From contig QPGO01000012.1 of NCBI GenBank assembly GCA_008632985.1, positions 496,001 to 560,000 of the forward strand: a stretch of 64,000 nucleotides of DNA, written 5' to 3'. The position numbers were made by a program, and so were the translations under genes. This stretch comes from Psammoneis japonica. Its lineage: Eukaryota. Within the stretch, counting starts at the first letter, position 1; the number at the start of each line of letters is the position of its first letter. Below the pieces are notes generated by a model. It saw only the letters and a program-made list of their open reading frames with translations, had not been told where the DNA came from and ran no database searches. Shown here piece after piece: positions 25,361 to 53,754 of this stretch.

Positions 25361-25559
25361 TCTGTCAGCCCAGGGTGCAATCCTGGAAACTGGGTGGCAT
25401 GTGCAAATGGCAAAATGAAACAAGATCTCATGCAGAGAAGGAGCAGCTCAAGGACCTCATGGCAGAGAACAAGCGGCTCACAGACCTTGACAACAAGAAC
25501 AAGAGGGACAGACACCAGTTGCTCAAGGCAGTGGCTCCTTCGTCTGCCACAAAGACAAC

Positions 25560-28300: not shown

Positions 28301-28739
28301 AGCATGCAGTGTTCTTTCCAAAGAGGGCTCCAGTTTGTGGAGACAAAAGGGATGTGCCCTTTTCATGACCCAATTTCATGGACACTGAGCCCAATTTGTG
28401 CTCTGCACTCAATTTTGACTGAAGCACTTGCAGAGCTGCAAGCAACAAGAACAGGCTGAAACTTAAAGCACCCCTGTGCTTTTTTAATCACATTGCAGTG
28501 CATGGCTCTTAGCATTAACTGAGTTGGTGTGTCACCAAAAAAAACTGCCTTGAGATTGCACCTCCAATCACATTGCAACATCCCCCTTTTCATTGATTGA
28601 GCTGACAGTGGTGGAGCATCTTTGCCAAACAATTGCCTCGGGCATTTGCAGCAGAATCTGGTCCATTGTCAGAGACAAACCAGTTGAAACAAAAGCACCT
28701 TTTTCTCTCTCTAGTCAAAAAACTCAAGCAATGCTGTTG

Positions 28740-30200: not shown

Positions 30201-31038
30201 GACAAACAGTGGGATGACCCCCCTTAATTAAAAATGACGTAACATAGGAGTTTAAAAGCAACAATTATTGTTCGCGCGAGGTACACAGGGCACTGGTAAT
30301 GTCACGACACACACACTTCCGATGCGAACCCATCGCATCATAAATGTTCTGGAACATTTATCATTTGGTCCTTATATGCCCTAGAACATTTAACATCTAG
30401 ACCATAAATGTTCAATTCTAACCGAGTCTCAAACTATTGCCGTTTCGTGTCCGACCCGCAAATTACTCCCACAACTTTCCGTTCGATGCGAGATGTACTA
30501 AGTAGTCTTCCGTCGTATGCCTTTCAACTCTCCATTTATGTTATTCGTACGAAACTCAAACAAGAGAGGAAGCAAAGAAGAAGCAAATCAAAGCAGCTCA
30601 AGAAACAAAGAAAGAAGAGTCTGATACAAAGGTGCGTGATGCGGCGCCGACTCGGTTTGCATTGTTTGTTGATGACTTTCGTCGTGGTCAAAGGTCTCGT
30701 CCAGTCGGTTTCGACTGGTTTCACCTTGTCGTCCTGACATGATGTGCGGTCGACGGGAATGCTGTGAATTTTGCAATTTCAACCACCAGTCGGAAGAATC
30801 TTCATTTTGTTATTGTGACGGCTGCATGTGCTGTAGCACATGGTTCTCCATGCTGTGCATTGCATTGTTGTGGATTGTTTGTTGCTGTCGCCATTTCTGT
30901 TGTTGAGGGATGAGAACACTGTTTGATGATCTGAGGGGTGTTCGCATCCATTGATCTTCGCTGTGTCTGGCACTATCATACACACGCGTAACTCACTCCC
31001 AAACCTCCCACTCTCAACACCTCCTCTTTACAGCCCCG

Positions 31039-33495
31039 ATGAAGCTATCAGCATTCATCCTCGCCCTGTTCCTGTCCCTGTCGACCTGCACCTCGCAGAA
31101 GCTCATCCGCAGCTTCGACACCTGCAGCGAGATCAACAACTACTACATCAACAAAGTGTTGCCGCTTGTCGGTTCGTCTGGCCTCACCTCAACGAATGCC
31201 TACACGCAGACGCGAGAACCGACACATGCCGGGAAGGCAGGAAGACCTGGCGGTCCTGCTTGGCTGCGTCTCTACAAGCCGTTCACCGACCCTAAATTGA
31301 TCGAGTCGGGAAACATCACCTTTGGCGGTATATTCGATCCATCAGATGAAGACGAAGAAGAAGGAAAGAAGGAGGGCAAGGACTTCTCGGGCACCAACGT
31401 CCAGGTTAAGGGTGTCGACGAGGCCGACATCATCAAGACAGATGGCGAGAACGTTTACACGATCTCTGGCAGAAAGCTCTCGGTAATCAAGGTCCTCAAC
31501 AACGGAGGGGGTGGGACAGTTACTGGCTCACTCCGACTGCCCACCTACCCTGACGACATGCTGCTCGAAAAGAACTTTGTCGTTGTCATTGGTCGTGACA
31601 ACACCTACACACGCCAGGTTCACCAACGTTACCGGCGCCATCCATCGGTCGGTGAGGACTCGACTGTGTTGTACCAGATCGCTGTCAGGAGAAACGGCAA
31701 GCCGAAGCTGGTTTCAACGCTTCATCTCGAAGGAGCGTACGTCAAGGCGCGCGAAACAAAAGGCATTGCCCGCATCGTGATCAAATATAACCCGTTGAAT
31801 TCCATCTGGCTGTACACCCCCACCGACGAATTCAAATCGGATCAAACACTCAAGTGGAACAAAGAGATCATCGAATACTCACGCCCCGGAAACTGGCTAC
31901 CGACATACAAGCTTATAAAGGGGAAGCAGAAACAGGTCGGCGTGTACGCGTCATGCAGTGACCTGTACTACTCGCCAGACGTGTTTTCAGGTTTTTCCCT
32001 CCTCTTGGTGGTGACGCTGCCGCTCAACCAACTCATGACGCCAGCATCATCAGCCTCAATTATCTCGGATGCTGAAGCTTTGTACGTGACCAAGCAGTCC
32101 ATGTACGTTACGACTAGCGAGTTCCACTTTGGCGATCTGTCTGACAGCAATCTCCGCTGGGGCGAGGGCTACAAGACAAGTATCCACCGCTTCAGCCTGA
32201 GTGACGAGGGCGCGGCGTACCAGGCAAGTGGTCAAATCACAGGCAGTGTGCTCAACCGATTCAGTATGCACGAGCACCGTGGCTACTTTTTCATTGCATC
32301 GACCGTCGGTGCACCGTGGTGGAGCAGGCGGTCGCTCAGCGCGAGCAAGGTCATCTCATTCAAGATTGACGACGACAACCGCGTGCTGCAGGAGGTCGGC
32401 ATGGTTGGCAACCTTGGGCTTGGCGAGCGCATCTTCGCGGTGCGATATCACAAAGACATTGCATACGTCGTGACGTTCGAGGAGACGGATCCGCTGTACA
32501 TCATCGATCTGTCAGATCCTGAGAACCTCCGGGTCAGCGGAGAGCTCAAGATTCCTGGCTTCAGCACGTACCTTCACCGAATGGAGCCGGGCAGAGTGCT
32601 CGGTGTCGGAAAGGACGTGTCAAGTTCGGGCGCAATCTCGGGCACAAAGGTGTCGCTGTTCGACGTGAGCGATGAAACAATCCCAAAGGAAGTGGCAGTG
32701 TGGACGCTACAGGGAAGCTACTCCAACGCGGAGTGGGATAACCGGGCGTTCTTGTACTGGAGAAAGAGTAAACTCGCAATTATGCCCGTTGTGGTAACCG
32801 AAGATGGAACGGTGTTCAGCGGAGCCATTGTTCTCAAAATTGCGAAAAAGGAGATCTATGAGGTCGGGCGTATCCAGCACTTTATTCCTGGAAGCGATTA
32901 CCATCCGCGAATCCTGAGAAACATCGTGATTGAATCATTCTTGTGGTCCATGTCGACTCAGCAGCTCCAAATCAATGCGCTGGATAACATCAAACAGCAG
33001 AAAAGCACGGTTGATATTGCAGACACTGCAGTCCTGCGAGTGGCATCTCTGGAGGGGCTGCAGCTATTTTCGTCGTATACTTGGCCAGCATTGGCAAGAG
33101 ATTTGGACACCGGAACACAATTTCTCACAGAGAAGGTCGGGTACAGCTGCCCCACGGGGAACAACGGAAAATACATTAGGTTCTCAGGAGACAATACCAG
33201 TGAGGAAGGAAATGAGGATGTGACGGTATTCCTCGGAAAGGCACTTGCAGACAAGAAACTTACGGATAAAGCAGAGGTGCTGTTTAACGCAGGATGGTAT
33301 GGCCAACAGTTCAAAGGCGAGGCTACCCTAACTTTGAAGTTGGTCAAGTCATCGACTGGAAAGGTCATCAAAGGCAGTGAATTAATGCTTCCGATCAACC
33401 CAGGAGCGCAAAGTGGTTGTTCGAACACGCTGGTGGCGACGCTTACAGTCGAGCTCGGATCTGACGACGTCACGCTCACTTTGAGAAACACATAA
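31039..33495 (+). CDS. Secreted beta-propeller-domain protein (Beta_propel / COG4880 type) with extra C-terminal domain
   Basis: 818-aa intronless ORF; signal peptide MKLSAFILALFLSL; motifs FSGTNVQVKGVDEADIIKTDG, GERIFAVRY, VVTFEETDPL, GELKIPGFSTYLH. Confidence 0.9.
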   Translation: MKLSAFILALFLSLSTCTSQKLIRSFDTCSEINNYYINKVLPLVGSSGLTSTNAYTQTREPTHAGKAGRPGGPAWLRLYKPFTDPKLIESGNITFGGIFDPSDEDEEEGKKEGKDFSGTNVQVKGVDEADIIKTDGENVYTISGRKLSVIKVLNNGGGGTVTGSLRLPTYPDDMLLEKNFVVVIGRDNTYTRQVHQRYRRHPSVGEDSTVLYQIAVRRNGKPKLVSTLHLEGAYVKARETKGIARIVIKYNPLNSIWLYTPTDEFKSDQTLKWNKEIIEYSRPGNWLPTYKLIKGKQKQVGVYASCSDLYYSPDVFSGFSLLLVVTLPLNQLMTPASSASIISDAEALYVTKQSMYVTTSEFHFGDLSDSNLRWGEGYKTSIHRFSLSDEGAAYQASGQITGSVLNRFSMHEHRGYFFIASTVGAPWWSRRSLSASKVISFKIDDDNRVLQEVGMVGNLGLGERIFAVRYHKDIAYVVTFEETDPLYIIDLSDPENLRVSGELKIPGFSTYLHRMEPGRVLGVGKDVSSSGAISGTKVSLFDVSDETIPKEVAVWTLQGSYSNAEWDNRAFLYWRKSKLAIMPVVVTEDGTVFSGAIVLKIAKKEIYEVGRIQHFIPGSDYHPRILRNIVIESFLWSMSTQQLQINALDNIKQQKSTVDIADTAVLRVASLEGLQLFSSYTWPALARDLDTGTQFLTEKVGYSCPTGNNGKYIRFSGDNTSEEGNEDVTVFLGKALADKKLTDKAEVLFNAGWYGQQFKGEATLTLKLVKSSTGKVIKGSELMLPINPGAQSGCSNTLVATLTVELGSDDVTLTLRNT

Positions 33496-34127
33496 ACAGC
33501 TTGAAAGCCTGCAGATGTTTCGCGTTCTGCGTCAAGACATCAAAATCCGAATAAATATCAAACATGTGAGGCAGGACGAGTTTTAGAAGTAGTTTTTTTA
33601 CACGTACATAGATCACAATTAAAGCAACGAGACTTTGTAAATTACCCCAAAGACTTGGACGTACCCAGAGATCAATCTAGATTTGCGCATTCTGTTCATA
33701 TATCTTTTCTGAAAAGACAATGCAAAATCGGCTTTTTGGATTCGTCTGTAGATTCGGGCACGAGAAGCAATTTGACGGGAATTTAGAAATGTCACGCGAG
33801 GTCCAGCTACAGTGCATAGTTTAGAAGAACGAGCATGTCGCTCAGCGGGTCAATTCATTACAATCCACAATCGACACCGTCACCAATTGCTGAGGATGCG
33901 TGATGTGGCATTACGGTGCTTGTTCGCATGTTCCTCAAGAATGCAACGATCTGGCACCACATCGCTTCGACCATGTTGATTCTCATCAAAACCCATCTTT
34001 AACACAAAGAAAGCTCACCTGCCACGAGTGACATTGTCTCAAACCTGAATCTCCTGAAGATCTCGTAGCGGATTCATTGTTTCATGCATCCAGCCCAACA
34101 AAATGTAGCCGCTCACGACATCTTGAA

Positions 34128-34355
34128 TGACTTGTGCCAACGTGAGTGCACTCCACCCTCGAGTCGTTCCATTGTTTGACAACACTTTTCAAAATGCGCG
34201 TCACATTGAAGCGACGAGCGACATCCAACATGGTGAGCCAACAGGTGTCGGCGTGTTTGGTGTTTTCTTCCAAGGCCCACTTGAGTGCAACATGAGTTGG
34301 ACCCACACCGGCAGCCTTCCACACCTCAATGAGATGCTTCCAAATCTCCGCCCAT
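34128..34355 (-). pseudogene. Fragment of a eukaryotic/archaeal-type tyrosyl-tRNA synthetase gene
   Basis: After an AG acceptor: MGGDL...KHLIEVWKAAG...DTCWLTMLDVARRFNVTRI..KCCQTMERLEG..LTLAQV, matching TyrRS MGGDL..YLIEVWKA...YW...DIAR....RI..CCQIMGR...LTAAQ; contains indels. Confidence 0.7.
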
Positions 34356-35059
34356 CTGCACACAGTGGAGACACACACAGCATGTTGGAAAATGAAATGA
34401 GAGGAAATCACAACAATGCAACAATGCGTTTCATTTTCTTTTTTTGTTCATTTCGTTTTACCTCACCATGCATGAGAGCGCACTGGTCGGCAACCCAAAA
34501 AGCAAAGGTCGAGTTGGTTCCATTCTGCGGTGCATCAAAGCATGCTTCGCTGGCCCAACTGGTTGCAATTTTCTCTCATCATTGCTTGTGGCAGGTGTGG
34601 CGGTGTTGCTGTGTAACAGCAGCTAGCTGGCAGTCCAGGTCTTACAAGGCGTTGGATGCATTGCACCGGCATGCAGTCTACGTGTTTTTTTGTGCGTGCA
34701 AATTGCAGTGGGATCAACCCCAAACGCGACGCACTGGCGATCAGACCGCCTTCGACGATCTCACTGCGCTGCCAAAGACCCCCCCCCAAGCCAAGTTGCT
34801 GGCTGAAGAATCTTGGCGTGATGGAATTTGCACTGGAAGAGTCTGTTAATCTGTGCGTTGTGGTGGGGGGTTTTGGTGAACGCAGGACAGAATCGACGTC
34901 TTTTACGTGCGTAAAAATTGCACTGGCAAAACCCCCAAATGCACTGACAGGCAGACTTTTTCCAGCCAGCAGCTGCTGGCTGGAGACGTCCCCCCAGGTG
35001 ACGTCCCCCCAGATCGTCGGCATCTCTGGGGCATTCGATCGCACAAGGAAGCGGTCAGC

Positions 35060-35180
35060 AAGACAGCCCTTGCTTGCTCCTTTGGGCTTTGGGGTCACAG
35101 CCCTCGCTTGCTCCTTTGGGCTTTGGGGTCACAAACGGCACAGCTCCTCCTGCAGCCAACCAGCCCTTGCTTGCTCCTTC
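35060..35180 (+). repeat. About 34-bp tandem repeat (cagcccttgcttgctcctttgggctttgggg), resumed at 43669-43720
   Basis: Units at about 35063, 35097 and 35161; the last is interrupted by the LTR element and continues after it. Confidence 0.8.
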
Positions 35181-35873
35181 TGTTGGAAATGGCGAATTAA
35201 AAGTTCAAACACCAAAGTTAGACAGCGTGAAGAAGACGTACGCTTCAGTGCTCATGTGCTCCACGTGAAGCACCAAAACAGCCGATGGAAGCAGTCGTTG
35301 TTCTCTTTTGACTCTTGGAAAGTGTTGTGACAACAAGCTTGTCTATTTTGGCCTCAGGATCAGACCTCAGAGGACTGAGGTGGCTCTGGAATGGTCGCCA
35401 GAAGGACAAACCACAACAGTTAAAAGAGAACAATCCAGCCAAGAGCTGTGAAAAGAAAGTGAGAAAGAAAAGAGTCGTTCTCACAGTGTGCAAGACATTT
35501 TGCTGCTTTGCCTTTTTGTCACAAGTGGAAGAGGCAGAGGTGGAACTGGCAACAGAAGCCAAGGAAGAGGACCCTCAGGAAGGGGAAACAAGAGTGGCAA
35601 GCAAAGCCACAAGGGCATCAATGATTGTGTGTGCTGTGTTGGAAGTGCCAAGCAAGCATCTGATTTTCAGATTGCTGCTGAGTTCATCATCAACTGCATC
35701 AAGAAGACTTGTGAGTTTGGAAACGACATTGCAACTGCACTCAACACTTGCACTCCATGTGACATGAGTTCTAAAAAGCCGACTTTGCAGGTGAGCTTGA
35801 CTGGAGATGACAAGGTGGGCATGCAATTGAACAAACCGCATGAAATTGAGTTCAAGAAAGAATTTGATGCTCA

Positions 35874-37232
35874 TGCATGCATCGTGAATCGTGCACGCAC
35901 TTCTGCCGTGTTCGCTGCGTGGGGGTCCGCCGGGCCCACCAAGCCTTCAGGGTGCGCCGTGATCTCCGTGGCCATCCCGGCGTCATCCGAGAGTCCTGCC
36001 ATGGGCACATGCGTGGGTGCCTTTGCAAATTACCCTGATCTTCCCGCCTTCTGGCAGTGGAACGCATGCCATTGCAATGACAAGCCGGGGGTCGCAACAT
36101 CCTGCAGTCTGACCCCCAACTCAGTGACAGAGAGGCGTTTCCTCGGCAACTTTGATGCTCCACCCAGTGTTGCCCATGAGTTTGAAGGGAGGTCACTCAT
36201 GCATCTTCGGCAATGCACGTCTCGTCAGGAAGGCCTGTGCACACACAGGTGGACCTCAGACACGAGTTCAGGACATCCACGCAGTGACTGTCGTCTGTGT
36301 CATCCTCCTCCACGTCCTCAAACTCAGCGCACTCAGCGGCCAAAGTTCTTGGTCAGGACAAATGCACCAGCGGCGGCAAGGCCCATCTCTTCCGGAGGGT
36401 ACGGTGCCACCGCAACTGGTTGGCGACCAGGTCCCCGGCTCTGGGGCATGGGCATTTCCGTCCCAAGGCTGAGCGGGTCCAATGACGGTGGCAGGGTGGG
36501 TTGAAACGCGATGGTGCACTTGAACCGTCCCTTCATCCGGCGCGCCCTGCACATGGCTGCGGCGTGTTAACGCCATCGGTGCATTGTGCTCGGATGCCGC
36601 AGACACCCTCTGCGCCAGGGCTTGTGGGTTGTGGCATGATGGGCCTTGCACACGGGCAGCAAAATCAATCATGGGCTCAGCATGGACTCCTTGGTGTGGG
36701 TCCTTGTTGTTTGCCATGAAGTGATCGTGGTGCGTCCTGAGGTTTCCCTGTTGTGGGACCTGGGCTGTGCCGGCTTGCTGTGCTGGTTGGGCAGCTGCCT
36801 GTGGCTGTGTGCCCGGCACCCCTTGTGGCGCTTGGCCCGTGGGTGCACCCAGTGGTGGCTGGGCCGGTTGTCCTGCTGGTGGCACAGGGTGCACCGGCAG
36901 AGGCGGCATGTTCGACGGTGGTTGTGGTGGTTGCCCGGCCGGGCGGTTGCCCGCCCCCTTGGTTCACGGCGTTTGGTGGCTGGTTGTTCACACTGCGTGT
37001 TGCGTCGACTTCTTTCTGTGACAGGGCAAAGACGGCGGAGGTGTCCTGCATCGCGGTCTTATGGCGATTAAACTGTGCTGACAACAGCGGCTTGTCTTTG
37101 TCAATCTTGAAAGAATGAGACAAGCCAGTGATCGAGGAAAAACAACAACCCAACCTTTGCAGCACGTTCAACGTGCGTGCGTGGTTCAACAGGTGATGGG
37201 TCTTCTCCCCGATTCTGGCACTGGATGAGGAC
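35874..37232 (-). other. Foreign 1.36-kb insert with a Pro/Gln/Ala-rich ORF remnant inside the outer element
   Basis: No similarity to the inner element. Minus-strand ORF 36268-36909 continues in other frames. Junctions at ...gatgctca| and |agtcggcagtgtc. Confidence 0.6.
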
Positions 37233-37245
37233 AGTCGGCAGTGTC

Positions 37246-40200
37246 TGTTGGAAATGGTGAATTAAAAGTTCAAACACCAAAATTAGATGGCGTAAAGAAG
37301 ACGTACGCGTCAGCGCTCATGTGCTCCACGTGAAGCAACAACCACAGCCGATGGAAGCAGTCATTGTTCTCTTTTAACTCCCAGAAAGCATTGTGATGAC
37401 AAGCTTGTCTATTTTGGCCTCAGGATCAGACCTTGGAGGACTGAGGTGGCTCTGGAACAGTCACCAGAAGGATGAATTGCAACAGTTAAAAGAGAACAAT
37501 CCAGCTGAGAGCTGTGAAAAGAAAGCAAGAAAGAAAAGAGTCATTCTCACGGTGTGTGAGACATTTTGCTGCTTTGCCTTTTTGTCATGAGTGGAAGAGG
37601 CAGAGGTGGAACTGGCGACAGAAGCCAAGGAAGAGGACCCTCAGGAAGGGGAAACAAGAGTGGCAAGCAAAGCCACAAGGGCATCAATGATTGTGTCCAC
37701 TGTGTTGGAAGTGCCAAGCAAGCATCTGATTTTCAGATTGCTGCTGAGTTCATCATCAACTACATCAAGAAGACTTGTGAGTTTGGAAATGACATTGCAG
37801 CTGCACTCAACACTTGCACTCCATGTGACATGAGTTCTAAGAAGCCGACTTTGCAGGTCAGCTTGACTGGAGATGACAAGGTGGACGTGCCATTGAACAA
37901 ACAGCATGAAATTGAGTTCAAGACAGAATTTGATGCTCACATTAAGAGGGCCCAAACTTGTGAGAACAACCTTGTCAAGGCTCATGCTTTGCTCTGGGAG
38001 AGATGCTCCAAGGCCATGAAGAACAAGATTCAAGCAAGAACCGAGTTCCAAACCAAAATTGAAAACGATCCCATCGAATTGCTCAAGGCCATTAAGGAGC
38101 ATGCATTGAACTGCCAAGAGCACAGGTGTGACATGGCTGTCATCTCAGATTCAATGAGAGCGGTGCTGGAAACCAAGCAGAAGGAGAAGGAGAGTCTCCA
38201 AGATTGCACCAAGAGATTCAGGGTTGCAAGGGACATCATGAAGTCTCACATTGGAGGACCAATTGTCCTCACCAAGGCAGTGCAAGGCATGTCACAATGC
38301 GACGAGCACAATGCGGATTCTATCAAGAAGTGTCAAGAAAAGGCGTTCAGCCAATTGATGGGTTACATGCACTTGGAGAATGCAGACCAGCGCAAGTGCG
38401 GATCAATTCTAACAGGATTGAACACTCAGCAGTCCCTCAAGAACGACCAATGTCCCAAGTCCATTACGGAAGCCAACACGGTGTTGAGCAACCACAGTTT
38501 TGACTGCGTTGGTCAGCCTGACAACTGCCGCAACAGGAACAATCAAAACAACAACTCTGACTCCAAGAAACAAGAAGAAAACCAAGAAATCACACTGTCC
38601 TTTGCTCAGCTAGAAGGCAAGTGTTGCTGCTGTGGCAAGGCCGGACACAATTCCAACAAGTGCTGGGAAAGGCAAGGAAAACCTCAAGCAGAATGGGCCA
38701 TCAACAAGGCCAAAGCTGAGCAAGAAGCAAGCAATGCTCAGGCGAGTGAAGATGCCAGTGCAGCCAACTCTTCTGCCAAAGAATCCACTGGAACAAAATC
38801 CACTGTTTCAGGATGGGCTGGCATGCACATCGATGCATCTCTCTGCCAGGATCAACATGGCAGCATGAGAGACTGGATTTTATTGAACAACCAGTCCACA
38901 ACCACAATCTTGTGCAATGAGAAGCTCGTTGCAGACATCTGTCCATCGGATGAAGCCATGCATTTGCACACCAATGGCGGAGTCCCAGTCATGACACACA
39001 AGGCTGCGGCGCCAGGGTTTGGTGAGACTTGGTTTAACCCAGATGCAATCACCAACATTTTTGCTCATTCTGACATGAAGAAGAAACACAGAATCACAAG
39101 TGATTCTAAGCAAGACAATGCATTCACCGTTCATCTCCCCAACAAGAAGGTCAGGTTCGAGGAGGACGGAAAAGGGCTGCACGTTTGCAAGCCCAAGACA
39201 AATGACACTGGAATTCAGCTCCAATTTGTGCAGAGTGTGGAAGAGAACAAGAAGTTCTACACTCCACGACAGTTCGAGAAAGTCAAGAGGGCCAGGGAAT
39301 TGTTGCATGCGTTGGGAAACCCAACCGTGAACGATCTGAAGGCCATCATTTGCATGAACAGCATCAAGAACAATCCCGTCACAATGGAGGATGTAGATTT
39401 GGCCGAGAAGATTTTTGGACCAGACATTGGAAGTCTAAAAGGCAAGGTCACAAGGCAGAAGCCGGCACCAGTTGTAGAAGACTGCGTGGAGATCCCGAAG
39501 GAGCTCATTGCAGCGCAACACAAGGTCACTCTTTGCCTGGACGGTCTCAAGGTGAATGGATTGCCATTCCTCACCACAGTGTCACGAAACATTTTTTATC
39601 GCATGGCACAACCGCTCAAGGACTTGACCCAACCCACTCATCAAGAAGCTCTGGAAGATGTGCTGCGAGTCTACAACAAGGCCGATTTGAAGGTCACACG
39701 CATTCGTTGCGACAACGAATTCAGGCCCATTGGGAGTGCACTAAAAGACAAGTTTGATCTCAAGATGAACTGCGCAAATGCTCAAGAGCATGTCCCAGAA
39801 GCTGAAAGAAACAACCGAGTTGTTCAAGAACGTGCCAGGGCCGTCTGTCATCAGCTGCCGTTCAAGCATCTGCCAAAACTCATGGTCGAAGTCATGGTCA
39901 CCGAAGCTGCTGAGAAGCTCAATTATTTTCCAGCCAAGCACGGCGTTTCCAAACATTGCAGTCCGAGAATGATTCTCCATCAAAAGAATCTAGACTGTGA
40001 CAAGAGCTGCAAGATCACGTTCGGCACTTGTGTGCAAGCTCACAATGACCCGGACCCCAAGAACACCCAAGAGTCACGGACCTTGGATTGCATTCATTTG
40101 CACCCCACCGACAGCAACCAGATTGGACATGAGTTGCTGCACTTGCAAACTGGCAAGAAGATCACTCGTCGCAAGGTCACCCTTGTGCCCATCACTCCCG

Positions 40201-42880
40201 CCATCACAAAGCAGGTTCATTGTTTGGCTGAAATGAACAAGATGCCCAACGGCCTCAAGATTCAGAACCACACTGGAACTGTTTTGTGCGACAGTGCTTG
40301 GCTTGCAGGAGTGGATTGTGATGAAGATCAATTTGAAGACAAAGATTGTGATCTAGAAGAAGACACTGAAACTGAAGACGATGAGGAAGAAGAGCCAGAC
40401 TGGGGAGACTGCGACAGAGTTAGTCAAGAAGAGCTGCAAGACATAACTCAAGAACAAGAATTGGATGAAGAAGCCAGCTGCATCAGCGAAGAACAAGACG
40501 AGACTCAAGAAGAAACCTCCAATGATGAGGATCTCGGAGACAATGACAAAGTTGGTTCTCAACCGTCAGACGGCAGCGGAATTTCACAAGAAATCGACGA
40601 CATGATTGACCACATTGATGAACAACAGAGGCTGGAACAAGAGAAGGAACACTCTTCGGAAGTGCAAGAGATCATCGACGAAATGAAAGACCTGGAATCT
40701 GATGACGAATCTGGAGAGGAGCAGAGTGAAACCGAAGAAAGTGTTCAAGAAGAGCCTGTTGCTGCGTCCAGGGCAGGAAGGACTCTGAAACCTCCAGTTA
40801 GATTGGGAGACCACCAATGCCATCTACAGACTCAAGCTCATTCACAAGAAGAAGAGTGCAGCTTAGAAACGGCCAGAATCATGGCCGCGACAATGTGTCA
40901 GTGGAACGAGAAGGTCAGCACGATTTCCACTGATGAAGAAGCACATCATTTCATTCAGACTTGCAGCTTGGCACGAGGACTCCAGAAGTTTGGAGAAGAA
41001 GGCCACAAGTCGGCAGTGTCAGAGCTGAAGCAAATCCATGTAGAGTGGTTTTCAAACCCATTCACATCAATGACATGACTCCTCTGGAGAGGAAGAGAGC
41101 CATGGAGAGCCTCATGTTTCTCACAGAGAAGAGAGATGGACGAATCAAGTCAAGGTTGTGTGCAAACGGAAGCACGCAACGAGAGCACATGGACCAAGAC
41201 CAAGCCGCCAGTCCGACAGCATCCACAGAATCTGTTCTCGTTGCAGGAGTGATTGATGCCAAGCAAGGCAGAGACGTTGTGACAGCGGACATCCCGAACG
41301 CATTTGTGCAAACGGACATCGAGGTCAAGGATGAAAAGATCATCATGAAGATCCGTGGAAGGATGGTGGACATGTTGCTGGAATTGGATCCAGACACTTG
41401 CCAGGACTGCATCGTGTGTGAAGGCAAACACAAGGTTCTCTACGTTGAAATGTTGAAGGCGCTCTGCGGAATGCTGGTGTCCTCCATTCTTTGTCACAAG
41501 AAGTTCCGCAGAGACATCGAAGGAATCGGATTTGAGGTTGATCCTTGTGATCCATGTGTCGCCAACCGCATCGTGAATGGAAAACAACACACGGTGACAT
41601 GGCATGTGGACGATTTAAAGTCCAGTCACGTTGGCAGCAAGGTCAACGATGAATTCAAGATTTGGTTGGACAAAACTCACGCGGATGAGATCGGAAAGGT
41701 CAAATGCACGCGTGGAAAGAGGCACGACTGTCTAGCCACGACTCTAGATTGCTCCATTCCAGGAGCACTGCAAGTTGACATGGTGCTTTATGTGCAAGGA
41801 ATGGCCAAGGAATTCTTCAAGGAATTCCCAGAAGAATTGTCGGGTGACGTGGATTGCCCGTGGAGCGAGAAGCTCAACAAGGTGGATGAGACAGCCAAGA
41901 AATTAGATCTCAAGCATGCTCGAGCATTTTGCACTTTTGTGATGAAGGGCATGTTTGTGTGCAAGAGAGCCAGACAGGACATTCAGCCTGGCATTGCTTT
42001 TCTCTCCACCAGGGTCAAGGATCCGAACGAATCGGATTGGCCAAAGCTGGTGAGGCTCATGAATTTCCTCAAGACAACCCAGCTTGATGTCACAGTCATG
42101 TTGGCTGGAGACAAAGTCATCATCGAGTGGCACACGGATGCCGCATTCGCAGTCCATCCGGACTGTAAAAGTCACACAGGTTCTGCCATGACCCTTGGAA
42201 AAGGTGTCATTACATCAGTCAGCACGAAGCAGAAGATCAACACCAGGAGTTCTACAGAAGCAGAGATCGTCGCAGGAGATGATGTTTTGGCAAAGGTCCT
42301 TTGGACCACGCATTTTGTTGAAGCTCAAGGTTTTGAAGTCGAGCGCAACATCATGCATCGAGACAATCAAAGTTGCATGAAACTAGAACAAAATGGAAAG
42401 GCCAGCTCGGGCAAACGCACGAGACATTTCAACATCAAGTGTTTTTACATCACTGACCTCATCAAGCCAGGAGAACTTGAGATCAAGTTCTGCCCAACGG
42501 ACAAGATGATGGCAGATTACATGACCAAACCAGTGGTTGGTAAAAAGTTCATTGTTGATCGTCAAGCCATCATGAACATCCAAGTGCCTGAGATGGTCAA
42601 ATTTGGAAATGGCAAGAATCTTGTCATTGGTCAGCAGGAGTGTGTTGGAAATGGTGAATTAAAAATTCAAACACCAAAATTAGATGGCGTGAAGAAGACG
42701 TACGCGTCAGCGCTCATGTGCTCCACGTGAAGCAACAAAACAGCCGATGAAAGCAGTCATCATTCTCTTTTAACTCTTAGAAAGTATTGTGATAACAAGC
42801 TTGTCTATTTTAGCCTCAGGATCAGACCTTAGAGGACTGAGGTGGCTCTGGAATAGTCGCCAGAAGGATGAATTACAACA
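37246..42880 (+). mobile_element. Inner full-length Ty1/copia (CoDi-like) element nested in the same family, TSD GTGTC
   Basis: LTRs 37246-37484 and 42643-42880; GTGTC on both sides; gag-Zn knuckle-protease-integrase ORF 37566-41078 (RCDNEF, HVPEAERNNR); RT/RNase H ORF 40961-42730 (DIPNAF, WHVDDL, TRSSTEAE); 1-nt deletion frameshift near 41040; PPT agcaggag. Confidence 0.96.
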
Positions 42881-44448
42881 GTGTCAGAGCTGAAGCAAAT
42901 CCATGACAGAGTGGTTTTCAAACCCATTCACATCAATGACATGACTCCTCTGGAGAGGAAGAGAGCCATGGAGAGCCTCATGTTTCTCACAGAGAAGAGA
43001 GATGGACGAATCAAGTCAAGGTTGTGTGCAAACGGAAGCACGCAACGAGAGTGCATGGACCGAGACGAAACCGCCAGTCCGACAGCATCCACAGAATCCA
43101 TTCTCATTGCAGGCAAGGTTTTGAAGTCGAGCGTAACATCATGCATCGAGACAACCAAAGTTGCATGAAACCAGAACAAAATGGAAAGGCCAGCTCGGGC
43201 AAACGCACGAGACATTTCAACATCAAGCATTTTTACATCACTGACCTCATCAAGCGAGGAGAACTTGAGATTAAGTTCTGCCCAACAGACAAGATGATGG
43301 CAGATTACATGACCAAACCAGCGGTTGGTAAAAAGTTCATTGTTGATCGTCAAGCCATCATGAACATCCAAGTGCCTAAGATGGTCAAATTTGGAAATGG
43401 CAAGAATCTTGTCATTGGTCAGCAGGAGTGTGTTGGAAATGGTGAATTAAAAGTTCAAACACCAAAATTAGATAGCGTGAAGAAGACGTACGCGTCAGCG
43501 CTCATGTGCTCCACGTGAAGCAACAAAACAGCCGATGGAAGCCGTCATTATTCTCTTTTAACTCTTAGAAAGTATTGTGATAACAAGCTTGTCTATTTTA
43601 GCCTCAGGATCAGACCTTAGAGGACTGAGGTGGCTCTGGAACAGTCACCAGAAGGATAAATTACAACACCTTCGGGCTTTGGCAACCAGCCCTTGCTTGC
43701 TCCTTTGGGCTTTGGGGCAGCAACAAGCATCATGTGCGAGTGCTTGGCTTTGACAAATCCCGTCAACTGTGCCCAGAAGAGCAACAGGAGCTGCGCAGAC
43801 AATTGTGGTCAATTGCCCGGAAGCCTTGTCAAGTGTGGCCCAATCAGAAAAATGATCAGAACAACTTGCCTTTGGCTTTGACAAGTCCCATCAACTGCAG
43901 TGGTCTACTCAGCAGAGACAGTTGTGGTGGTTCCCAACACAACTGCCAGGAAGCCAGACAAGTGTGATCAGAAGTTCAACAAGAAAAATGATCAGAACAA
44001 CTGCCACCGACTTTTTGCTCTTCGAGGTCCTGAGATGAGCATTTCTTTTGTTACAAAAGTGTGATGAGTCACAGAGCGTACACTCTTGTTGAGCAATTGG
44101 CAGTGCCAGACAACTCCCAAATGTGCCCATTGGGCTCAGTGTGCAAGAAGAAGGAGGAGTCCATGCAGATCCCAGGGAAAAGAGTCTAATCTTCCAAGCA
44201 TTGCTGACATTGAGTGGCAACAGCAGGCATGTCAGCATGCTTACAGGAAGTTCTGATGTTCGAGCCTTTAAGAAAAACTCTTTGTGAGCTTCCGGACTTG
44301 TCAAAAACATGATTTCAAAATTTTCAAGAGATCAACAGAGTGCTCAGAATGCCAGGGGTTGGAATTGGGGGGGGGGGGGGGGAATGGCCCTCTCAAAATC
44401 TTCAGGAGTCCCAAAATTAGATGCAGAACCTGAAAATAGTCAAGCTGA

Positions 44449-45297
44449 GGCTCGGTCTACAGGTGAACCGAGCCGGATCGGATCGCCGGATCGACTCCTT
44501 CATAACCCATTAAAATGTTAGTCCATCGAGTCAAAAAGTCGATCCGTGGCCTTCGTGGGACTGATCCGCCATCTCGGATCGGACGGTCTTCGGAGCAAAA
44601 TATTTTGCTCCGAAGACCGTCCGATCCGAAAATCCGGATCGGATGTCGGATCCAATTTTGAAGATTCCGTGCCGTCATCACGACAATAGCACAACATCAC
44701 ACGATTATGACACAGAACGGCATAAGATTCAGCCATAAGGGCAAGGAACATTCTGAGCATTATAGTCAAAGTCTTCCCATGCTCGAAATGACGATGAGAA
44801 AGGTCGCATGGCAATAGAATAGCTTGTCAAACCGATAATGCCGTATAGATTTGTTGGAGAAACATTGAATAAGCAAAATAACAAGTATTTATTATTGAAT
44901 TCGAAATTTCAATACGAAAACATTTGCATTAGTTTCCTAATTACAAAAGTGATAGCTTTTTCTTCCTTAGCGTTGCTGCGAACACTGAGTGACAACGATT
45001 CTCAATGATGCGGTCTCATATGTATGTATAGCAGTAATAACAGTATGGTTCTGTCGTCATATCGTCACGTTATGACAAGATGTGAAGCATCATGGCCACA
45101 CTTCTTGTTGTTCGCTGTTGTCAGCGCTTTGTTGTTCTTGGGAGTTTGGAATCTTGAAACTTATGTCGTTTTGCGACTCACATCAAAATGTCGAATCCGA
45201 TCCGCGATCCGATCCGGTTCCACCTGTCGACTAACGGAATTCTGACGCGATCCGATCCGTCGATCCGATCCGGCGCGGTTCACCTGTAGACCGAGCC
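44449..45297. mobile_element. PIF/Harbinger (Tourist-like) MITE, 849 bp, 3-bp TSD TGA
   Basis: TIR ggctcggtctacaggtgaaccg / cggttcacctgtagaccgagcc; TGA on both flanks; subterminal GATCC/GGATC repeats; no coding capacity. Confidence 0.85.
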
Positions 45298-45712
45298 TGA
45301 AAGCAGAGGTACATTTACAATGGCCATGATTGCTTCTTGCTCATTTTAAAGCTGCACCAATTCCAGAAATGCATCCCTTAAATCAACTTTTCATGTGCAT
45401 TTTCAGTTCTTTTATTTTCATCTCTCGTGTGCACAAATTATCCATTTTTAGCACTTTATGAATGCATTTTGTTCACTGCTTTGAAGCAGCACCAATTCTT
45501 TTCATGCGTTCTTTGATTTGCATCTGTCAAATGCGTTTGTTTATAATCACTTTAGCCAATAAAATGGCTGTCACACCTTTGCTGTAAAGGGTTCAAAGGC
45601 CATGGTCCAGGTGACGGCAAGGTGTTTTTGTGCGTCGCTCGCTTCGTCTTGGAGTTTTTTCATCTGTCATATCTTTGTTGTTTTTATCTCTCAAACATGC
45701 AAATTATCTTTT

Positions 45713-45962
45713 ACATGCAAATTATCAGCACCAATTCCATCAAAATTACAAATAGAAGGATAATTATGATCGACTTTTCATGCAAATTTTCGGTTCTTTG
45801 AATTTTATCTCTCGCACGCCCAAATTAGCCTTTTTCAGTCACATGCAAATTAGCAGCACCAATTCCAGCAAAATTACAAATAGAAGGATAATTATGATCG
45901 ACTTTTTGTGCAAATTTTCGGTTCTTTGAATTTTGTCTCTCGCACACACAAATTAGCTTTTT
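45713..45962 (+). repeat. Tandem duplication, period 128 bp
   Basis: acatgcaaatta..cagcaccaattcca..aaaattacaaatagaaggataattatgatcgac starts at 45713 and at 45841. Confidence 0.9.
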
Positions 45963-49299: not shown

Positions 49300-52200
49300 T
49301 TATTGATATTTGTTTTTGCGGTTCATACACGGGCCTTTCAAACGTCTTCCGGCACATTGATAGCGCAACAGAACATACTCAAGAATGACGAGCCCGATGA
49401 ACCATGTAGAGAGAACAACTAGGGCCAACTTCTCCGAGGATGTTGGCGCGAAACCGAGGTAGCGCGAAATGAAAGACCCGTCAGAAGCGATACATGAGAT
49501 GGCATCTATGCAGAAGTTCTCATGGCTGCGGTGCCCAAGTTGGTTGAGTGCGGCTCCTGAAATGGCCCAAAACGTGAAGGAGATGATGTACAACCACGAC
49601 AGCCCCGGTGGGAGTTTGCGAGTTGAAACCAGGAGCCCACCAAAGAGGAAGCTCAAGAAAATGTAAACGGAGTAGAATTTTGAAAATTTTCGGTAGTCTC
49701 CACGGAAACAAACACAGAGCATTCTTCCGCACTGGAGAGCCACAAGAAGATGTACTGCAGAGAAGAGTATTTGCACTGACAGAGTCGACAGAGACCATCC
49801 CAGGACCGCATAGCCAACTAGATGAGCCATGATAACCGAAAGGATGGGAATTGAGAAAGAGAAGGTCTGCGAAGACAATTGGTAGGAGAGCAAGGATATT
49901 CTTCCATCATCAAGTTCAAGCCGATGGGCCGTCCACATCTTGCAGGAGAGATGGATCTTGTGCCGGAACAAGTTGACAGGAATGCCAATGTAGAATGTGC
50001 TCACAAGAACTACTTGGACTGGTGAGTGATCATCAAATCGCAGGACCATTGCGAAGAGGGCGAAAACAATCGGAAGTGTGATAAGATCGAGAAGATCCGA
50101 CTTGTAATTGCAGTGAAGCCGCCGGCAAAGAAATGCCATCTCCCTCAGCTTTTTAGCAAGGTGTAACCGACCGCAGAAAACAGTTCTCGTGTCTTCTCTC
50201 TGCCATGTGCCGACTGTTGTCGGACTTCCGTTTGCCATTTTCTCCGAGTGGGACTCTTCATTCGAGCCTTGTCGCATTGCATTTGTCTGTGCTGGGCACA
50301 GACCAAACTCTACTTCACGCGGCAAAATATCTGAGCTGGGACTTTGTCTACTCTCATCAGTTTCCGAATCTGAAAGGTTTTCTTTCACTGATTGCAAAGT
50401 TTTAGATGATAGCACGCTGCTGTTGCTGTCACTTTGATCATCAGAATCCTTTGGTGGTGGGATTGTTGCTTCGTTTTCAGATCCCTCGTCGAATAGCCAT
50501 TGGTCGTTGTTGCGACTGCTGTCATCATGCAGCAGCAGCATTCGGGTCGATTGGCGAACATATGATGAAAGAAGGCTGTCGAGCTCTTTTGCTAGGACCC
50601 TTGACGACCGATGGGCAGAACGGTATTCGTCCCTTGCCAGAGTCCCGCTTTCGAGTACGATGACCCTGTCAAAGAAATCCAGGATGAAATGCGACGGCTG
50701 GTGAAGTGTCATGACAATAGTAAATCCATGCTGAGTTGACAAGTACTCAACAAACTTCATGATCAAAGAAGAGGTAGCACTGTCGATGCCGCTGAGTGGC
50801 TCGTCCAGGAGCACAAGTCTTGGTGACATTAGAAGAGCCGCTGCAAGGGCCAAAATTCTCCTTTGCCCACCACTTAGGTTTCTTATTTTCACGTCATAAA
50901 AGGGGTTTATCTCTGCCGCTGGCGCTTCCTCAGCCCTAGCAGGAGGATAGCGGTCTTCCACCATCGATTCCTCATCCTCAGAAGGTTGCCCAGGGGCTGG
51001 TGCTCGAGAAAACAGATCTCGAACGAACCGAACACACTCATCTGTTCTATTTCTCTCAGTTCCATAAATCGATCCAGTAAGGAGAAGATACTCGCAAGGC
51101 TTCATGTTTTCCATCTTAACGGAATCCCCTTGACGAAGGTAGGCCGTTTCTTCTTCTTTTATATCGCTCGAAAGATCGCGAGCTGACACTGTCAAGCCTT
51201 GTAGTCGTTTCTGGCTCAGGAAGTTCAGCAGGGTCGACTTACCACTGCCACTCCTTCCCATTATTGCATTGACGGAACATGCGTGCAGTTTCAAATCAAT
51301 ATCCTTCAGAATGGGTTTACCTGTTGCCGCGTGGTATACATTCAAGCCCTGGACTGACGCCACTTCTTTTCGATTTTGGATAAGTTTGTGTCTTCGCCCT
51401 AGCTTTATTTCCTCGTTTTCTGAAGTGCTCGCCTCTGCACCATGTATCATTTCTTCTCCATTCGATCCAAAACTTCTACCCACTCCCCGAAGTGCCGTCG
51501 AAAGGATGATCAACACGAGCATCGAGTACCATATTCCCTCGAATAATGTTGGAATGGTGACAAATGTTTCTTCCAACTCAATCAACGACTGGCATTGGTT
51601 GGAAGCTTCAGAGTCCGCATTGCAGTTTGGTCCATGGCACCGATCCACAAATACCCGTATGTGTTCCGACTTGCTTATGTCGTTTGGAAAGCTGAGACCA
51701 CTCTCGACTTTGTCGTGAGCAACAATAAACGCCGAAACAATTTCTCGTACAGTGAATCCTTGAACTGTCGCAAGGTTCCACGTATCTGTTGAAAGCCACA
51801 GAGTAAGTCCCATTGCAACCAATTCCAGGGATGTCCGAACACCGACGGCATCATCTCGGCATACTACATCATATTCCTTGTCTTGGAAATTCCCATAGGA
51901 ACAAGCCTGATGCAGCAGCTCAATGGACGGGACAAAGAAACCATGAGTGACGCATGACGAAACTATCCAGTGGACTCTAGGTCCGAGCTTCGGGGTCAGT
52001 GCTTCGAAGGCTGCGGATGTTTCGAGTGGACGAACAATCCGAGATCCAGCTACTTCAGCAACATTCCAAATCTTGCTTATAACGTCTGAAAAGCTCTCCT
52101 GACCATGTCCTTGGTCTACACTGTCATAAATAGAGAATGGATCATATGATGAATCGAAAAGTACGACGTCTTGGGACGGTGCTGATAGTGGTCCTTCCAC

Positions 52201-53103
52201 TGTTGGGTCACCTGACCCAAGTATCTTGGCCAAGTCGTCATCGTGGCGGAGCATGCAATGTGTTGACAAACAACATGGTAAGTCAGTCACCTGATTGTAT
52301 AGTTCCGAATAATAGTTCTTTGTATCACACAAAGGATGTTCCGTAAAATCAACGTAGGTGTCCATAGCTTCCGTTAAGTTCTTGTTATCGTGACGATCGC
52401 TCAGCGATGCGGAGTCCAAAATGTACAATACCGACAACAACCCCATAGTTTGGGCCACCAGTTGGATGGATCTGATGTGATTCATGACCCCAATGGCTCC
52501 GGCGCTGGTTCCGACAATGGCAAGATGTTCCACCTGCTGCTGTCCGTTCGAAACCGTCTCTCGCCAATGATCAATGACTTGAGTGAAAAGAGCTGATCCA
52601 GACGCAACGAAACCTCCGATTTTCCCTTTCTTGATGTCTCCGAGATAGAGGTCCTGTGTACAGTAGGGTACCAACCACTTTGTGTGGTTCTGAAAGGGGT
52701 TCCTTGACATTTCGTCTTCAGCGAGAATCGTATCACCACGGATTTCCTCCGGAAGAGTTGAAGAAGTGAACTTGTATGGCTCTGACTTGAATTCATTGAG
52801 ACAGTCTTCAGGCGAAGTGCAGACTCCTCCCCCCATGAAAACAATCACATGCTTGGTTTCATCTATAAAAGGTTGCTCACGGCTCGATCTTTCGAGGTAG
52901 AAGTTCGAGTAAATTCCTGCAGGACTTCCATCAGCACAGGGAAGATTGGATTCGAAGGGCCGAAAGGTGAGCGATGCTTCCACAGTCCAACATGTTGTGA
53001 GTATGGAAGCACCAACGAGCAGTTTCTTCCATGTTTGATTCAAGGTGCCAACAGTACGACGAGCTGGCAGCCACTTCCAGGATGACTTTGAGTTGATGAT
53101 CAT
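49300..53103 (-). CDS. ABCG half-transporter fused to an N-terminal pectin-acetylesterase/NOTUM-like domain
   Basis: Signal-like KKLLVGASILTTCWTVEA; PAE motifs CADGSPAGIY, FMGGGVC, VPYCTQDLYLG, GTSAGAIG; TM helix; Walker A GRSGSGKST, LSGGQ, LLDEP, TLHQP; C-terminal multi-TM domain. One open ORF. Confidence 0.88.
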   Translation of the reverse strand: MIINSKSSWKWLPARRTVGTLNQTWKKLLVGASILTTCWTVEASLTFRPFESNLPCADGSPAGIYSNFYLERSSREQPFIDETKHVIVFMGGGVCTSPEDCLNEFKSEPYKFTSSTLPEEIRGDTILAEDEMSRNPFQNHTKWLVPYCTQDLYLGDIKKGKIGGFVASGSALFTQVIDHWRETVSNGQQQVEHLAIVGTSAGAIGVMNHIRSIQLVAQTMGLLSVLYILDSASLSDRHDNKNLTEAMDTYVDFTEHPLCDTKNYYSELYNQVTDLPCCLSTHCMLRHDDDLAKILGSGDPTVEGPLSAPSQDVVLFDSSYDPFSIYDSVDQGHGQESFSDVISKIWNVAEVAGSRIVRPLETSAAFEALTPKLGPRVHWIVSSCVTHGFFVPSIELLHQACSYGNFQDKEYDVVCRDDAVGVRTSLELVAMGLTLWLSTDTWNLATVQGFTVREIVSAFIVAHDKVESGLSFPNDISKSEHIRVFVDRCHGPNCNADSEASNQCQSLIELEETFVTIPTLFEGIWYSMLVLIILSTALRGVGRSFGSNGEEMIHGAEASTSENEEIKLGRRHKLIQNRKEVASVQGLNVYHAATGKPILKDIDLKLHACSVNAIMGRSGSGKSTLLNFLSQKRLQGLTVSARDLSSDIKEEETAYLRQGDSVKMENMKPCEYLLLTGSIYGTERNRTDECVRFVRDLFSRAPAPGQPSEDEESMVEDRYPPARAEEAPAAEINPFYDVKIRNLSGGQRRILALAAALLMSPRLVLLDEPLSGIDSATSSLIMKFVEYLSTQHGFTIVMTLHQPSHFILDFFDRVIVLESGTLARDEYRSAHRSSRVLAKELDSLLSSYVRQSTRMLLLHDDSSRNNDQWLFDEGSENEATIPPPKDSDDQSDSNSSVLSSKTLQSVKENLSDSETDESRQSPSSDILPREVEFGLCPAQTNAMRQGSNEESHSEKMANGSPTTVGTWQREDTRTVFCGRLHLAKKLREMAFLCRRLHCNYKSDLLDLITLPIVFALFAMVLRFDDHSPVQVVLVSTFYIGIPVNLFRHKIHLSCKMWTAHRLELDDGRISLLSYQLSSQTFSFSIPILSVIMAHLVGYAVLGWSLSTLSVQILFSAVHLLVALQCGRMLCVCFRGDYRKFSKFYSVYIFLSFLFGGLLVSTRKLPPGLSWLYIISFTFWAISGAALNQLGHRSHENFCIDAISCIASDGSFISRYLGFAPTSSEKLALVVLSTWFIGLVILEYVLLRYQCAGRRLKGPCMNRKNKYQ

Positions 53104-53754
53104 CGTCACAGTCTGAGTCTAGAGTGAGAACTCTGTGAGCCGCCGTGGATTCTTCACATTCAACATGGTGCGAGTTTTTTAGCGGTATTACGTCGAGTTC
53201 TCCCTCAAATGAATAATTATTGTTTACTTGTAGGTGCCACACAGGCTCACAAATCTGAGACTGTGGTGTCAATTCACTCAGTAGTGATTCTACGTATTTT
53301 CTACCTACTGGTATTGATATACTGTACCACTTTATCTTTAACACAACATCTGGTTATTCTCTTGAAGTTCCTCCTTTTTTCTGCTTACAGGACGAATATG
53401 AGTGTATGATCATCGTAATAGTGAGAACTCTGTGAGAATATCCACGAGTTTTTTAGCTTGATCTACATGGTAGTGCTCGGTAGTGATTCTACGTCCGTAT
53501 TTACTGGTATTCATCTATGACTTCATTACTGTATCTTTCTCAAGTCTGTATAAAAATTTTCTTTAAGTTCTTTCTCTTTTTTCTTTACCGGTACACTTAT
53601 AACGTCTTCACAATGAGAGAGGGGAAAGAGCAAGGAAAAGAACATCACAACGGGGCGAACATGTATTCATACGGTATGTAGAAATAGGCTAATAGAAGAC
53701 TTCTGTTCTGACAAGGAACCTCCGAACTGGGCAGTCCTCCCCAACCCATCTCGC

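Follow-up and report, generated by a model that had tools for sequence, protein, structure and literature searches.

Apparent TpA-directed hypermutation of transposon DNA in a 64-kb stretch of the diatom Psammoneis japonica

How can the same tyrosine (Tyr) codon come to read histidine (His) in one copy of a transposable element and cysteine (Cys) in a neighbouring copy? This question is raised by a damaged copia-type retrotransposon with long terminal repeats (LTRs) that lies at 37244-42880 of a stretch of 64,000 nucleotides from the diatom Psammoneis japonica (assembly GCA_008632985.1, contig QPGO01000012.1, positions 496,001 to 560,000 of the forward strand). This stretch is called the window below, and all coordinates are counted from its first letter. 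A preliminary description of the sequence had noticed such codon pairs in duplicated parts of the element and had proposed a TAC or TAT ancestor that changed from TA to TG or CA. The pairs appear to be the visible tip of a near-saturating TpA>TpG/CpA hypermutation restricted to transposons, of a type previously described in a single preprint. The reading favoured here is a mutational process confined to transposon DNA that acts repeatedly on resident copies, presumably through an enzyme and perhaps as a genome defence; we give it a probability of about 0.62. The element array consists of the following parts, where ORF stands for open reading frame, RT for reverse transcriptase, and o/e for the ratio of observed to expected dinucleotide counts.

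35179-35418, plus strand: LTR copy a, with TA at 4 of at least 16 sites
35419-35873, plus strand: gag fragment of an upstream truncated copy, which pairs with 37485-37939
37244-42880, plus strand: copia-type (CoDi-like) LTR retrotransposon
37244-37484, plus strand: LTR copy b, 5' of the full element, with TA at 6 sites
37560-41078, plus strand: ORF1, the gag-protease-integrase part, 1172 codons open, Tyr 0.51%, Cys 4.0%, His 3.9%
40937-42730, plus strand: ORF2, the RT-RNase H part, 597 codons, Tyr 0.84%, Cys 3.5%
42641-42880, plus strand: LTR copy c, 3' of the full element and overlapping the end of pol, with TA at 12 sites, o/e 0.59
42879-43417, plus strand: second copy, internally deleted, an RT fragment (equivalent to 41014-41247) fused to an RNase H fragment (equivalent to 42326-42629)
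43429-43668, plus strand: LTR copy d, with TA at 14 sites, o/e 0.69

Judged by its sequence features, the element at 37244-42880 is of the Ty1/copia type. It has a collinear polyprotein, an RVT_2 domain, and four direct LTR copies of about 240 bp, and is termed CoDi-like here rather than placed in a named clade. A total of 96 homologues were found. Matches to ORF1 at E = 0 are polyproteins of 1600-1650 aa, those with a species or genus name being from Fragilaria crotonensis, Epithemia, Nitzschia, and Skeletonema, and the polyproteins of this length that bear PF07727 span 75-98% of ORF1. ORF2 reaches 29.7 bits against Pfam RVT_2, under the cut-off of 31.6, as expected because the element is damaged. 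ORF1 and ORF2 are in different frames owing to a 1-bp deletion at 41040/41041. The extra A that is absent there is present in the duplicate at about 42905 and in some contigs assembled from the public run X1. Three stretches of the array are duplicated, namely 41014-41247 and 42879-43113 (95.7% identity), 42326-42880 and 43114-43668 (96.8%), and 35179-35873 and 37244-37939 (92.4%).

All of the codon pairs reported earlier were found in place. In the RT domain, cac at 41186-41188 (QRE-H-MD) faces tgc at 43052-43054 (QRE-C-MD), and in RNase H, tgt at 42440-42442 (NIK-C-FY) faces cat at 43228-43230 (NIK-H-FY). In gag, CAC at 37698-37700 (NDCV-H-CVG) stands against TGC at 35632-35634 (NDCV-C-CVG), while a second gag site has kept TAC at 37761-37763 (IINYIKK) in one copy and carries TGC at 35695-35697 (IINCIKK) in the other. 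The residues at these columns were tabulated in 30 homologues, the first 30 by id among the 46 that are 1500-1800 aa long. The RT column holds Tyr in 25 and Trp in 4, the RNase H column Tyr in 25, Phe in 2, His in 2, and Leu in 1, and the first gag column Tyr in 24 and Phe in 6. The second gag column is mostly His (18, with Tyr in 8). Three of the four columns are thus Tyr-majority, and TA survives in sister LTR copies; the ancestor was TAY (Y, pyrimidine), hence the direction was from TA to TG or CA, as had been proposed. The preliminary description had also named arginine (Arg) codons of the form CGY as the competing ancestor. This caution was sensible, as CpG>TpG/CpA decay is also active here and CGY would give identical Cys and His codons. 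Arg was looked for and occurs in 0 of the 30 homologues at each of the four columns.

The same bias extends over the whole polyprotein. At the 59 Tyr-majority columns, the window has Cys at 30 (all TGY), His at 13 (all CAY), and Tyr at 8; by codon, these are TGT 15, TGC 15, CAC 8, CAT 5, TAC 6, and TAT 2, with 8 others. Where at least 70% of the homologues have Tyr (48 columns), the window retains Tyr at 7 and shows Cys at 23, His at 12, Phe at 2, Leu at 2, Ser at 1, and Pro at 1. Among the 794 conserved columns, this retention of 7/48 compares with 630/746 for the other residues (Fisher p = 3e-24). Conserved Arg columns are largely intact (38/45 retained, 0 changed to Cys, 1 to His). The 46 full-length homologues contain 4.0 +/- 0.49% Tyr and 1.23% Cys.

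The LTRs give the direction independently of any protein argument. Across the 241 aligned columns of the four copies, 12 sites are of the TA class, in that one or more copies still read TA where other copies read TG or CA; both products are represented at 9 of these 12. The remaining variation amounts to 4 CG-class sites and 11 otherwise variable columns. TA is preserved in some copies and replaced by TG or CA in others, therefore TA is ancestral and the changes are A>G on either strand. LTRs a and b (35179-35418 and 37244-37484), with TA o/e of 0.24 and 0.34, have both lost TA at 10 sites, and at 8 of these their products are opposite. LTRs c and d, whose o/e values were measured over 42630-42882 and 43418-43668, differ from each other at 4 TA-class sites.

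Copies of one sequence were hit independently after they had been duplicated. Adjacent double mismatches that read exactly CA in one copy and TG in the other number 10, 1, and 2 in the three duplicated pairs, the single case belonging to 42326-42880/43114-43668. When an equal number of substitutions was placed at random in 20000 simulations, the corresponding means, in the same order, were 0.55, 0.07, and 0.04, and the observed counts were reached in 0, 1405, and 6 runs. The pair 42326-42880/43114-43668 has 17 difference events in all, including 8 of the TA class and a single CA/TG double. CG-class differences between duplicated copies number 14. Two window copies cover 13 Tyr-majority columns, and a hand-read table of these gives 3 with His against Cys, 5 with the same derived residue, 2 with Tyr in both, and 3 with Phe in both. 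The segment 42879-43668 is an internally deleted tandem duplicate without the sequence seen 3' of LTRs a and b, and therefore points to a rearrangement at the DNA level. From its divergence at TA sites in both copies, together with the 4 TA-class differences between LTRs c and d, we infer that resident DNA was the substrate.

The earlier account was right about the duplicated element but understated the extent of the pattern, as all transposon islands of the window are affected. TpA-poor islands with sharp boundaries make up about 39.5 kb of the 64 kb. Counted in 500-bp segments, TpA o/e is 0.00-0.35 in 1-21000, 23501-30000, 34001-44500, and 59001-60500 and mostly 0.3-1.0 elsewhere, which gives a bimodal map; the islands, to which no strand applies, are as follows.

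1-21000: island with other copia-type remains, including RVT_2 at 3429-4766 and integrase parts at 10331-12610 on the minus strand, with CpG lost too from about 15501
23501-30000: island in which TpA and CpG are almost gone, o/e 0.00-0.12 each over most of the length
34001-44500: island holding the element array, TA o/e 0.03-0.35, borders within about 100 bp of 34000 and 44500
59001-60500: small island depleted of TpA and CpG, from the 500-bp map

Pooled over islands and compared with the rest of the window, o/e is 0.10 vs 0.57 for TA, 1.60 vs 1.18 for TG/CA, and 0.53 vs 0.96 for CG. The other seven strand-symmetric dinucleotide classes differ by at most 0.10, and AA/TT is unchanged between islands and host DNA (1.20 vs 1.15). 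The GC content is 0.51 in islands and 0.47 in the rest, and the spacing of TA shifts within about 100 bp at the island borders. Loss of CpG accompanies loss of TpA in 15501-20500, 23501-29500, and 59001-60500, where CpG o/e is 0.0-0.3 and TpG/CpA rises up to 2.1, while islands 1-15500 and 34001-44500 have lost TA and keep CpG o/e at 0.5-0.9. Some islands thus show loss of TA only and others both, so the two decays are separable; CpG decay is a separate, co-occurring process, set apart perhaps by age or methylation state.

The protein content of the islands follows the same division. ORFs in islands have 0-0.9% Tyr and 3-9% Cys or His, and the three longest host ORFs with Pfam domains, a beta-propeller gene, a gene fusing a pectinacetylesterase-like domain to an ABC transporter, and a hydrolase-like ORF, have 2.6-4.1% Tyr. 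In a second family (3429-4766), the Tyr residues of homologues align with Cys at 20, His at 22, and Tyr at 21 of 109 positions, summed over 11 high-scoring segment pairs. An older relative of the gag region, about 70% identical to 37961-38518, lies at 24839-25370.

By the genetic code, a change from TA to TG or CA creates no stop codon, and TAA and TAG vanish, which explains a frame of 1172 open codons in a ruined gene and the location of most long ORFs in islands. Of the 37 ORFs in the window with at least 200 aa, 30 lie in TA-depleted islands, many of them overlapping on both strands. Over islands 1-21000, 23501-30000, and 34001-44500, both strands together contain 200 TAA, 143 TAG, and 1812 TGA; as TAA and TAG are nearly gone, TGA alone closes frames there.

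The loss of TA depends on its neighbours. An index of surviving TA relative to host DNA is lowest for ATAT (0.01) and for ATAC/GTAT (0.01), intermediate for ATAA, ATAG, GTAC (0.08), and CTAC, which span 0.07-0.09, and for GTAA (0.16), and highest for CTAG (0.22), CTAA/TTAG (0.29), and TTAA (0.43). Grouped by the 3' neighbour of the adenine, survival is 0.04 before T, 0.08 before C, 0.16 before G, and 0.22 before A. The process favours RTAY and spares YTAR (R, purine), and all 8 retained Tyr codons are preceded by a pyrimidine. Both strands are affected, with Cys exceeding His by 30:13 at Tyr-majority columns (binomial p = 0.014); the other elements, which include a minus-strand one, are without a consistent Cys excess or sense-strand bias. 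Same-strand tracts were sought in the Cys/His series and none was found, with 25 runs against a shuffle mean of 19.2.

Contigs built independently from X1, a public run on the same organism, contain 0.48 of the 31-mers of the window; 1226 of them align at 90% likeness or more, and 374 are at least 99% alike. The 138 differences between window and contigs include 118 transitions (A>G 25, T>C 27, C>T 31, G>A 35). Run X1 may derive from the window's own sample, and thus supports the base calls rather than an independent organism. The contigs of runs X2 and X3 hold next to none of the window sequence.

The pattern can also be found in public protein collections. Among 245 database homologues, 12 have less than 2% Tyr and 6 less than 1%. 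At conserved Tyr columns, Cys or His occupies 8/10 in P0241, 10/14 in P0105, 9/16 in P0080, and 11/17 in P0106, compared with an intact control, P0099, that keeps Tyr at 30/32. P0241, P0105, P0080, P0191, P0209, and P0106 are predicted 'proteins' with 0-1.3% Tyr and raised Cys and His, and the Tyr-poor homologues looked up stem from Logan, ENA, and JGI assemblies. These 'proteins' are hypermutated relatives of the window element, a footprint that has gone unrecognised in public protein sets.

The process that these results suggest would be an A:T>G:C transition that strikes the adenine on one or the other strand of TpA, a palindrome, and gives TpG or CpA. It would act repeatedly on copies already in the genome, so that sister copies lose one ancestral TA independently, to TG in one and to CA in the other, and in coding DNA Tyr (TAY) would turn into Cys (TGY) or His (CAY). 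Its action would cease at most about 100 bp from the island borders and leave adjoining host genes untouched. The agent may be an adenine-deaminating enzyme acting on DNA, ADAT2/TadA-like as proposed for the chlorarachniophyte Bigelowiella natans (Mettrop et al., bioRxiv 10.64898/2026.01.13.699255), and could serve genome defence by being brought to repeats or to the chromatin of transposons.

Several points weigh against this reading. In-situ action at the DNA level is deduced from copy comparisons, and the material consists of footprints, without an enzyme, inosine, or a de novo event in the window. The sharp island borders would fit mutation before integration as well as targeted mutation in situ. 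LTRs c and d have host-like TA (o/e 0.59 and 0.69) beside coding DNA at 0.0-0.25, a contrast not expected if mutation in situ were uniform; it may stem from sequence context, from selection acting on the LTRs of lineages that are still copied, or from gene conversion. Short X1 contigs differ from the window copy at just 2-6 places per 137-258 bp, and several copies may share derived states, that is, already-mutated sequence may have been copied onward. The excess of Cys over His could reflect the 3' neighbour: where a pyrimidine precedes the codon it is 22:7, and where a purine does, 8:6. This trend is in the expected direction but non-significant (Fisher p = 0.29, and p = 0.23 in another small test). 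In other assemblies, 6 of 6 related loci have TA o/e of 0.58-0.75 and GC of 0.39-0.49, but they were found via peptide patterns with Tyr or other intact motifs that cannot catch mutated relatives, and serve as a baseline only. Three of these loci come from metagenome contigs and three from genome contigs, with an alignment of intact homologues as the query; the window's own damaged protein found no related locus among genome contigs, and the search of viral contigs gave none either. Finally, the evidence is confined to one 64-kb window.

Among the rival explanations, the most serious, although we consider it rather unlikely, is editing during the retrotransposition cycle, in which a deaminase acts on element RNA (sense A>G) and on minus-strand cDNA (T>C) and new insertions inherit the changes. 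The stop of the depletion at island borders agrees with it, as does the 30:13 excess of Cys, the sense-strand product. TA-normal LTRs c and d next to TA-poor coding DNA would fit lineages that transpose in trans with their LTRs kept by selection, and the X1 contigs show few differences from the window copy. These LTRs, the similar contigs, and the opposite products in LTRs a and b together keep editing of RNA or cDNA before integration alive. Nevertheless, 42879-43668, with its DNA-level rearrangement, diverged from its partner mainly at TA sites and in both copies, and LTRs c and d differ at 4 TA-class sites. Moreover, TG and CA are both found in non-coding remains and in degenerate fragments that belong to several families and lie in different orientations, and the B. 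natans preprint describes the same signature in integrated DNA-virus sequence that is single-copy. Editing restricted to the sense strand, as in hyperediting of the ADAR type, was rejected, as 13 of the 43 changes are sense T>C and the 25 runs exceed the shuffle mean of 19.2. Error-prone patch repair of methylated transposon chromatin, for example after deamination of 5-methylcytosine, by an enzyme like polymerase eta that misinserts G opposite T at WA (W, A or T) is improbable. Polymerase eta has a WA/TA hotspot in immunoglobulin hypermutation, and CpG decay shares the same islands. However, polymerase eta also targets AA and yields many transversions, whereas AA/TT is unchanged here (1.20 vs 1.15) and transversions are few, and islands 1-15500 and 34001-44500 are TA-depleted with CpG still at 0.5-0.9.

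A modification of thymine or adenine at TpA in silenced DNA, such as a mark of the 5-hydroxymethyluracil type, could mispair at replication and cause T>C. Thymine hydroxylation in dinoflagellates prefers TpA, and the palindromic target and the confinement to chromatin-like islands agree with such a mark; nothing in the window bears on modification, however, and a full-text literature search gave no diatom report of it. We hold it to be as improbable as patch repair. An artefact of assembly or base calling, in which modified TpA is misread as TG or CA in long reads, is still less probable. If a palindromic site were miscalled on one strand only, TG or CA would result at random. On the other hand, the X1 contigs, from another pipeline, share 0.48 of exact 31-mers although lost TA sites occur about every 18 bp, and the longest X1 contig (315 kb) points to accurate reads, as inferred from its length, the library type being unrecorded. 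The change of Tyr to Cys or His is also seen in proteins from Logan, ENA, and JGI assemblies, and the survival of TA is context-dependent. The chance that methylation-driven CpG decay of Arg codons (CGY>TGY/CAY) made the Cys/His pairs is negligible. Such decay is active here, with 14 CG-class differences between copies and CpG o/e of 0.0-0.1 in some islands, and some Tyr-poor database homologues show Arg changed to Cys or His too. A CGY ancestor for the reported pairs is nevertheless refuted by the complete lack of Arg at the four columns (0/30 at each) and by the retention of conserved Arg (38/45, with Cys 0 and His 1), and sister LTR copies are still TA at 12 sites.

The repeated action of a TpA-specific process on resident transposon DNA, as favoured here, has its closest known counterpart in B. 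natans. According to the preprint, de novo TpA>TpG/CpA changes were directly observed in mutation-accumulation lines; of 231 de novo mutations counted over two regions of integrated viral DNA, 230 were A>G or T>C, all at TpA. The targets described there are integrated giant-virus and virophage DNA, TpA-poor coding sequences are enriched for reverse transcriptase and DDE domains, and an ADAT2-like deaminase is proposed (bioRxiv 10.64898/2026.01.13.699255). As in that account, TpA alone is targeted in the window with TpG and CpA as products (TA 0.10 vs 0.57; 43 of 43 Cys/His codons are TGY or CAY). Both strands are affected, with TpA depletion and CpA+TpG enrichment, and both products occur at 9 of 12 LTR sites; mutation is confined to foreign or mobile DNA, the adjoining host genes being spared and the Tyr content of host ORFs normal. 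Unlike the rhizarian B. natans, the host here is a diatom, and therefore a stramenopile, and the targets are LTR retrotransposons. The footprint is near-saturated (o/e 0.10, down to 0.00-0.05) compared with 0.45 given for the region of nucleocytoplasmic large DNA virus (NCLDV) origin in B. natans, where de novo events were observed, whereas the process in the window is known from footprints alone. A preference for RTAY over YTAR was measured here, and none is mentioned in the abstract, Results, or Discussion of the preprint.

Other known systems resemble the pattern in part. Repeat-induced point mutation (RIP) of fungi is likewise a hypermutation limited to repeats and transposons, with a dinucleotide preference, action on both strands, and elements ruined copy by copy. 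Unlike the process described here, RIP changes C:G to T:A, mainly CpA>TpA, and thereby creates TpA and stop codons and lowers GC. In the islands, TpA is at 0.10 and TpG/CpA at 1.60, no stops arise, and GC is raised (0.51, compared with 0.47 for host DNA and 0.39-0.49 for the related loci). RIP was consequently rejected, as it predicts a rise of TpA and a fall of CpA/TpG and the reverse is seen. Decay of CpG by methylation and deamination yields the same TpG and CpA products in the same islands, but starts from CpG; the Tyr columns are not accounted for by it, nor are the LTR sites that still have TA. ADAR prefers a 3' G. Editing by ADAR or APOBEC that is fixed by retrotransposition also leaves deaminase-type transitions in retroelements, but in coordinated clusters on one strand, whereas here both strands are changed site by site, without runs and with a 3' preference of T>C>G>A. 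ADAR is also stated to favour a 5' U (bioRxiv 10.64898/2026.01.13.699255). A diatom methyltransferase, DNMT4, is described as related to the fungal RIP enzyme RID and of unknown function (PMC9998398); this kinship bears on the CpG component, not on TpA. In a full-text literature search, TpA-directed hypermutation in diatoms was unreported, and the sole matching description was the 2026 preprint on B. natans.

A wider proposal, which we regard as tentative and hold at somewhat less than even odds, is that diatoms run a dedicated defence that deaminates adenine at TpA in chromosomal transposon DNA. Such a defence would mirror fungal RIP with A:T>G:C changes, be common to diatoms and Rhizaria, and possibly be ancient in the group of stramenopiles, alveolates, and Rhizaria (SAR). 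If this is true, diatom assemblies should be filled with long, open, Tyr-less pseudo-proteins rich in Cys and His, local GC should be raised, and mutated elements may keep being copied in trans. If the pattern is genome-wide, diatoms would be a second, phylogenetically distant lineage with TpA-only A:T>G:C hypermutation of mobile DNA, which would turn a single-species curiosity into a candidate for a widespread eukaryotic defence and make the question of the enzyme testable. Diatoms are ecologically dominant, some species are genetically tractable, and the strength of the footprint (o/e 0.1, with a preference for RTAY) suffices to define the specificity of an enzyme. There is also a practical side for annotation. 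Hypermutated elements give long spurious ORFs from which gene finders would call many false proteins, and Tyr-less 'proteins' that fall under Pfam cut-offs are already in public collections, where they skew analyses based on composition.

Further features were noted in the window. A palindrome of 529 bp lies at 5622-6150, with arms that are 77% alike and whose differences include 8 CA/TG doubles and 11 CG-class cases. A run of about 19 G is found at about 44365-44383, just beyond the island border, and a 128-bp tandem duplication (91% identical) at 45704-45959. The host gene at 30955-33495 is intron-less and encodes a PF09826 beta-propeller (E = 2e-120); its nearest named relatives are in the red algae Gracilaria, Gracilariopsis, and Pyropia (40-49% identity), followed by Actinobacteria, and it may be an old gene transfer. 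On the minus strand, an ORF of 1272 codons at 49300-53118 joins the pectinacetylesterase-like domain to an ABC transporter (an ATPase and an ABC-2 membrane part). Seminavis robusta has this fusion too (46% identity), and the nearest named relatives are from Seminavis robusta, Pseudo-nitzschia, and Amphora.

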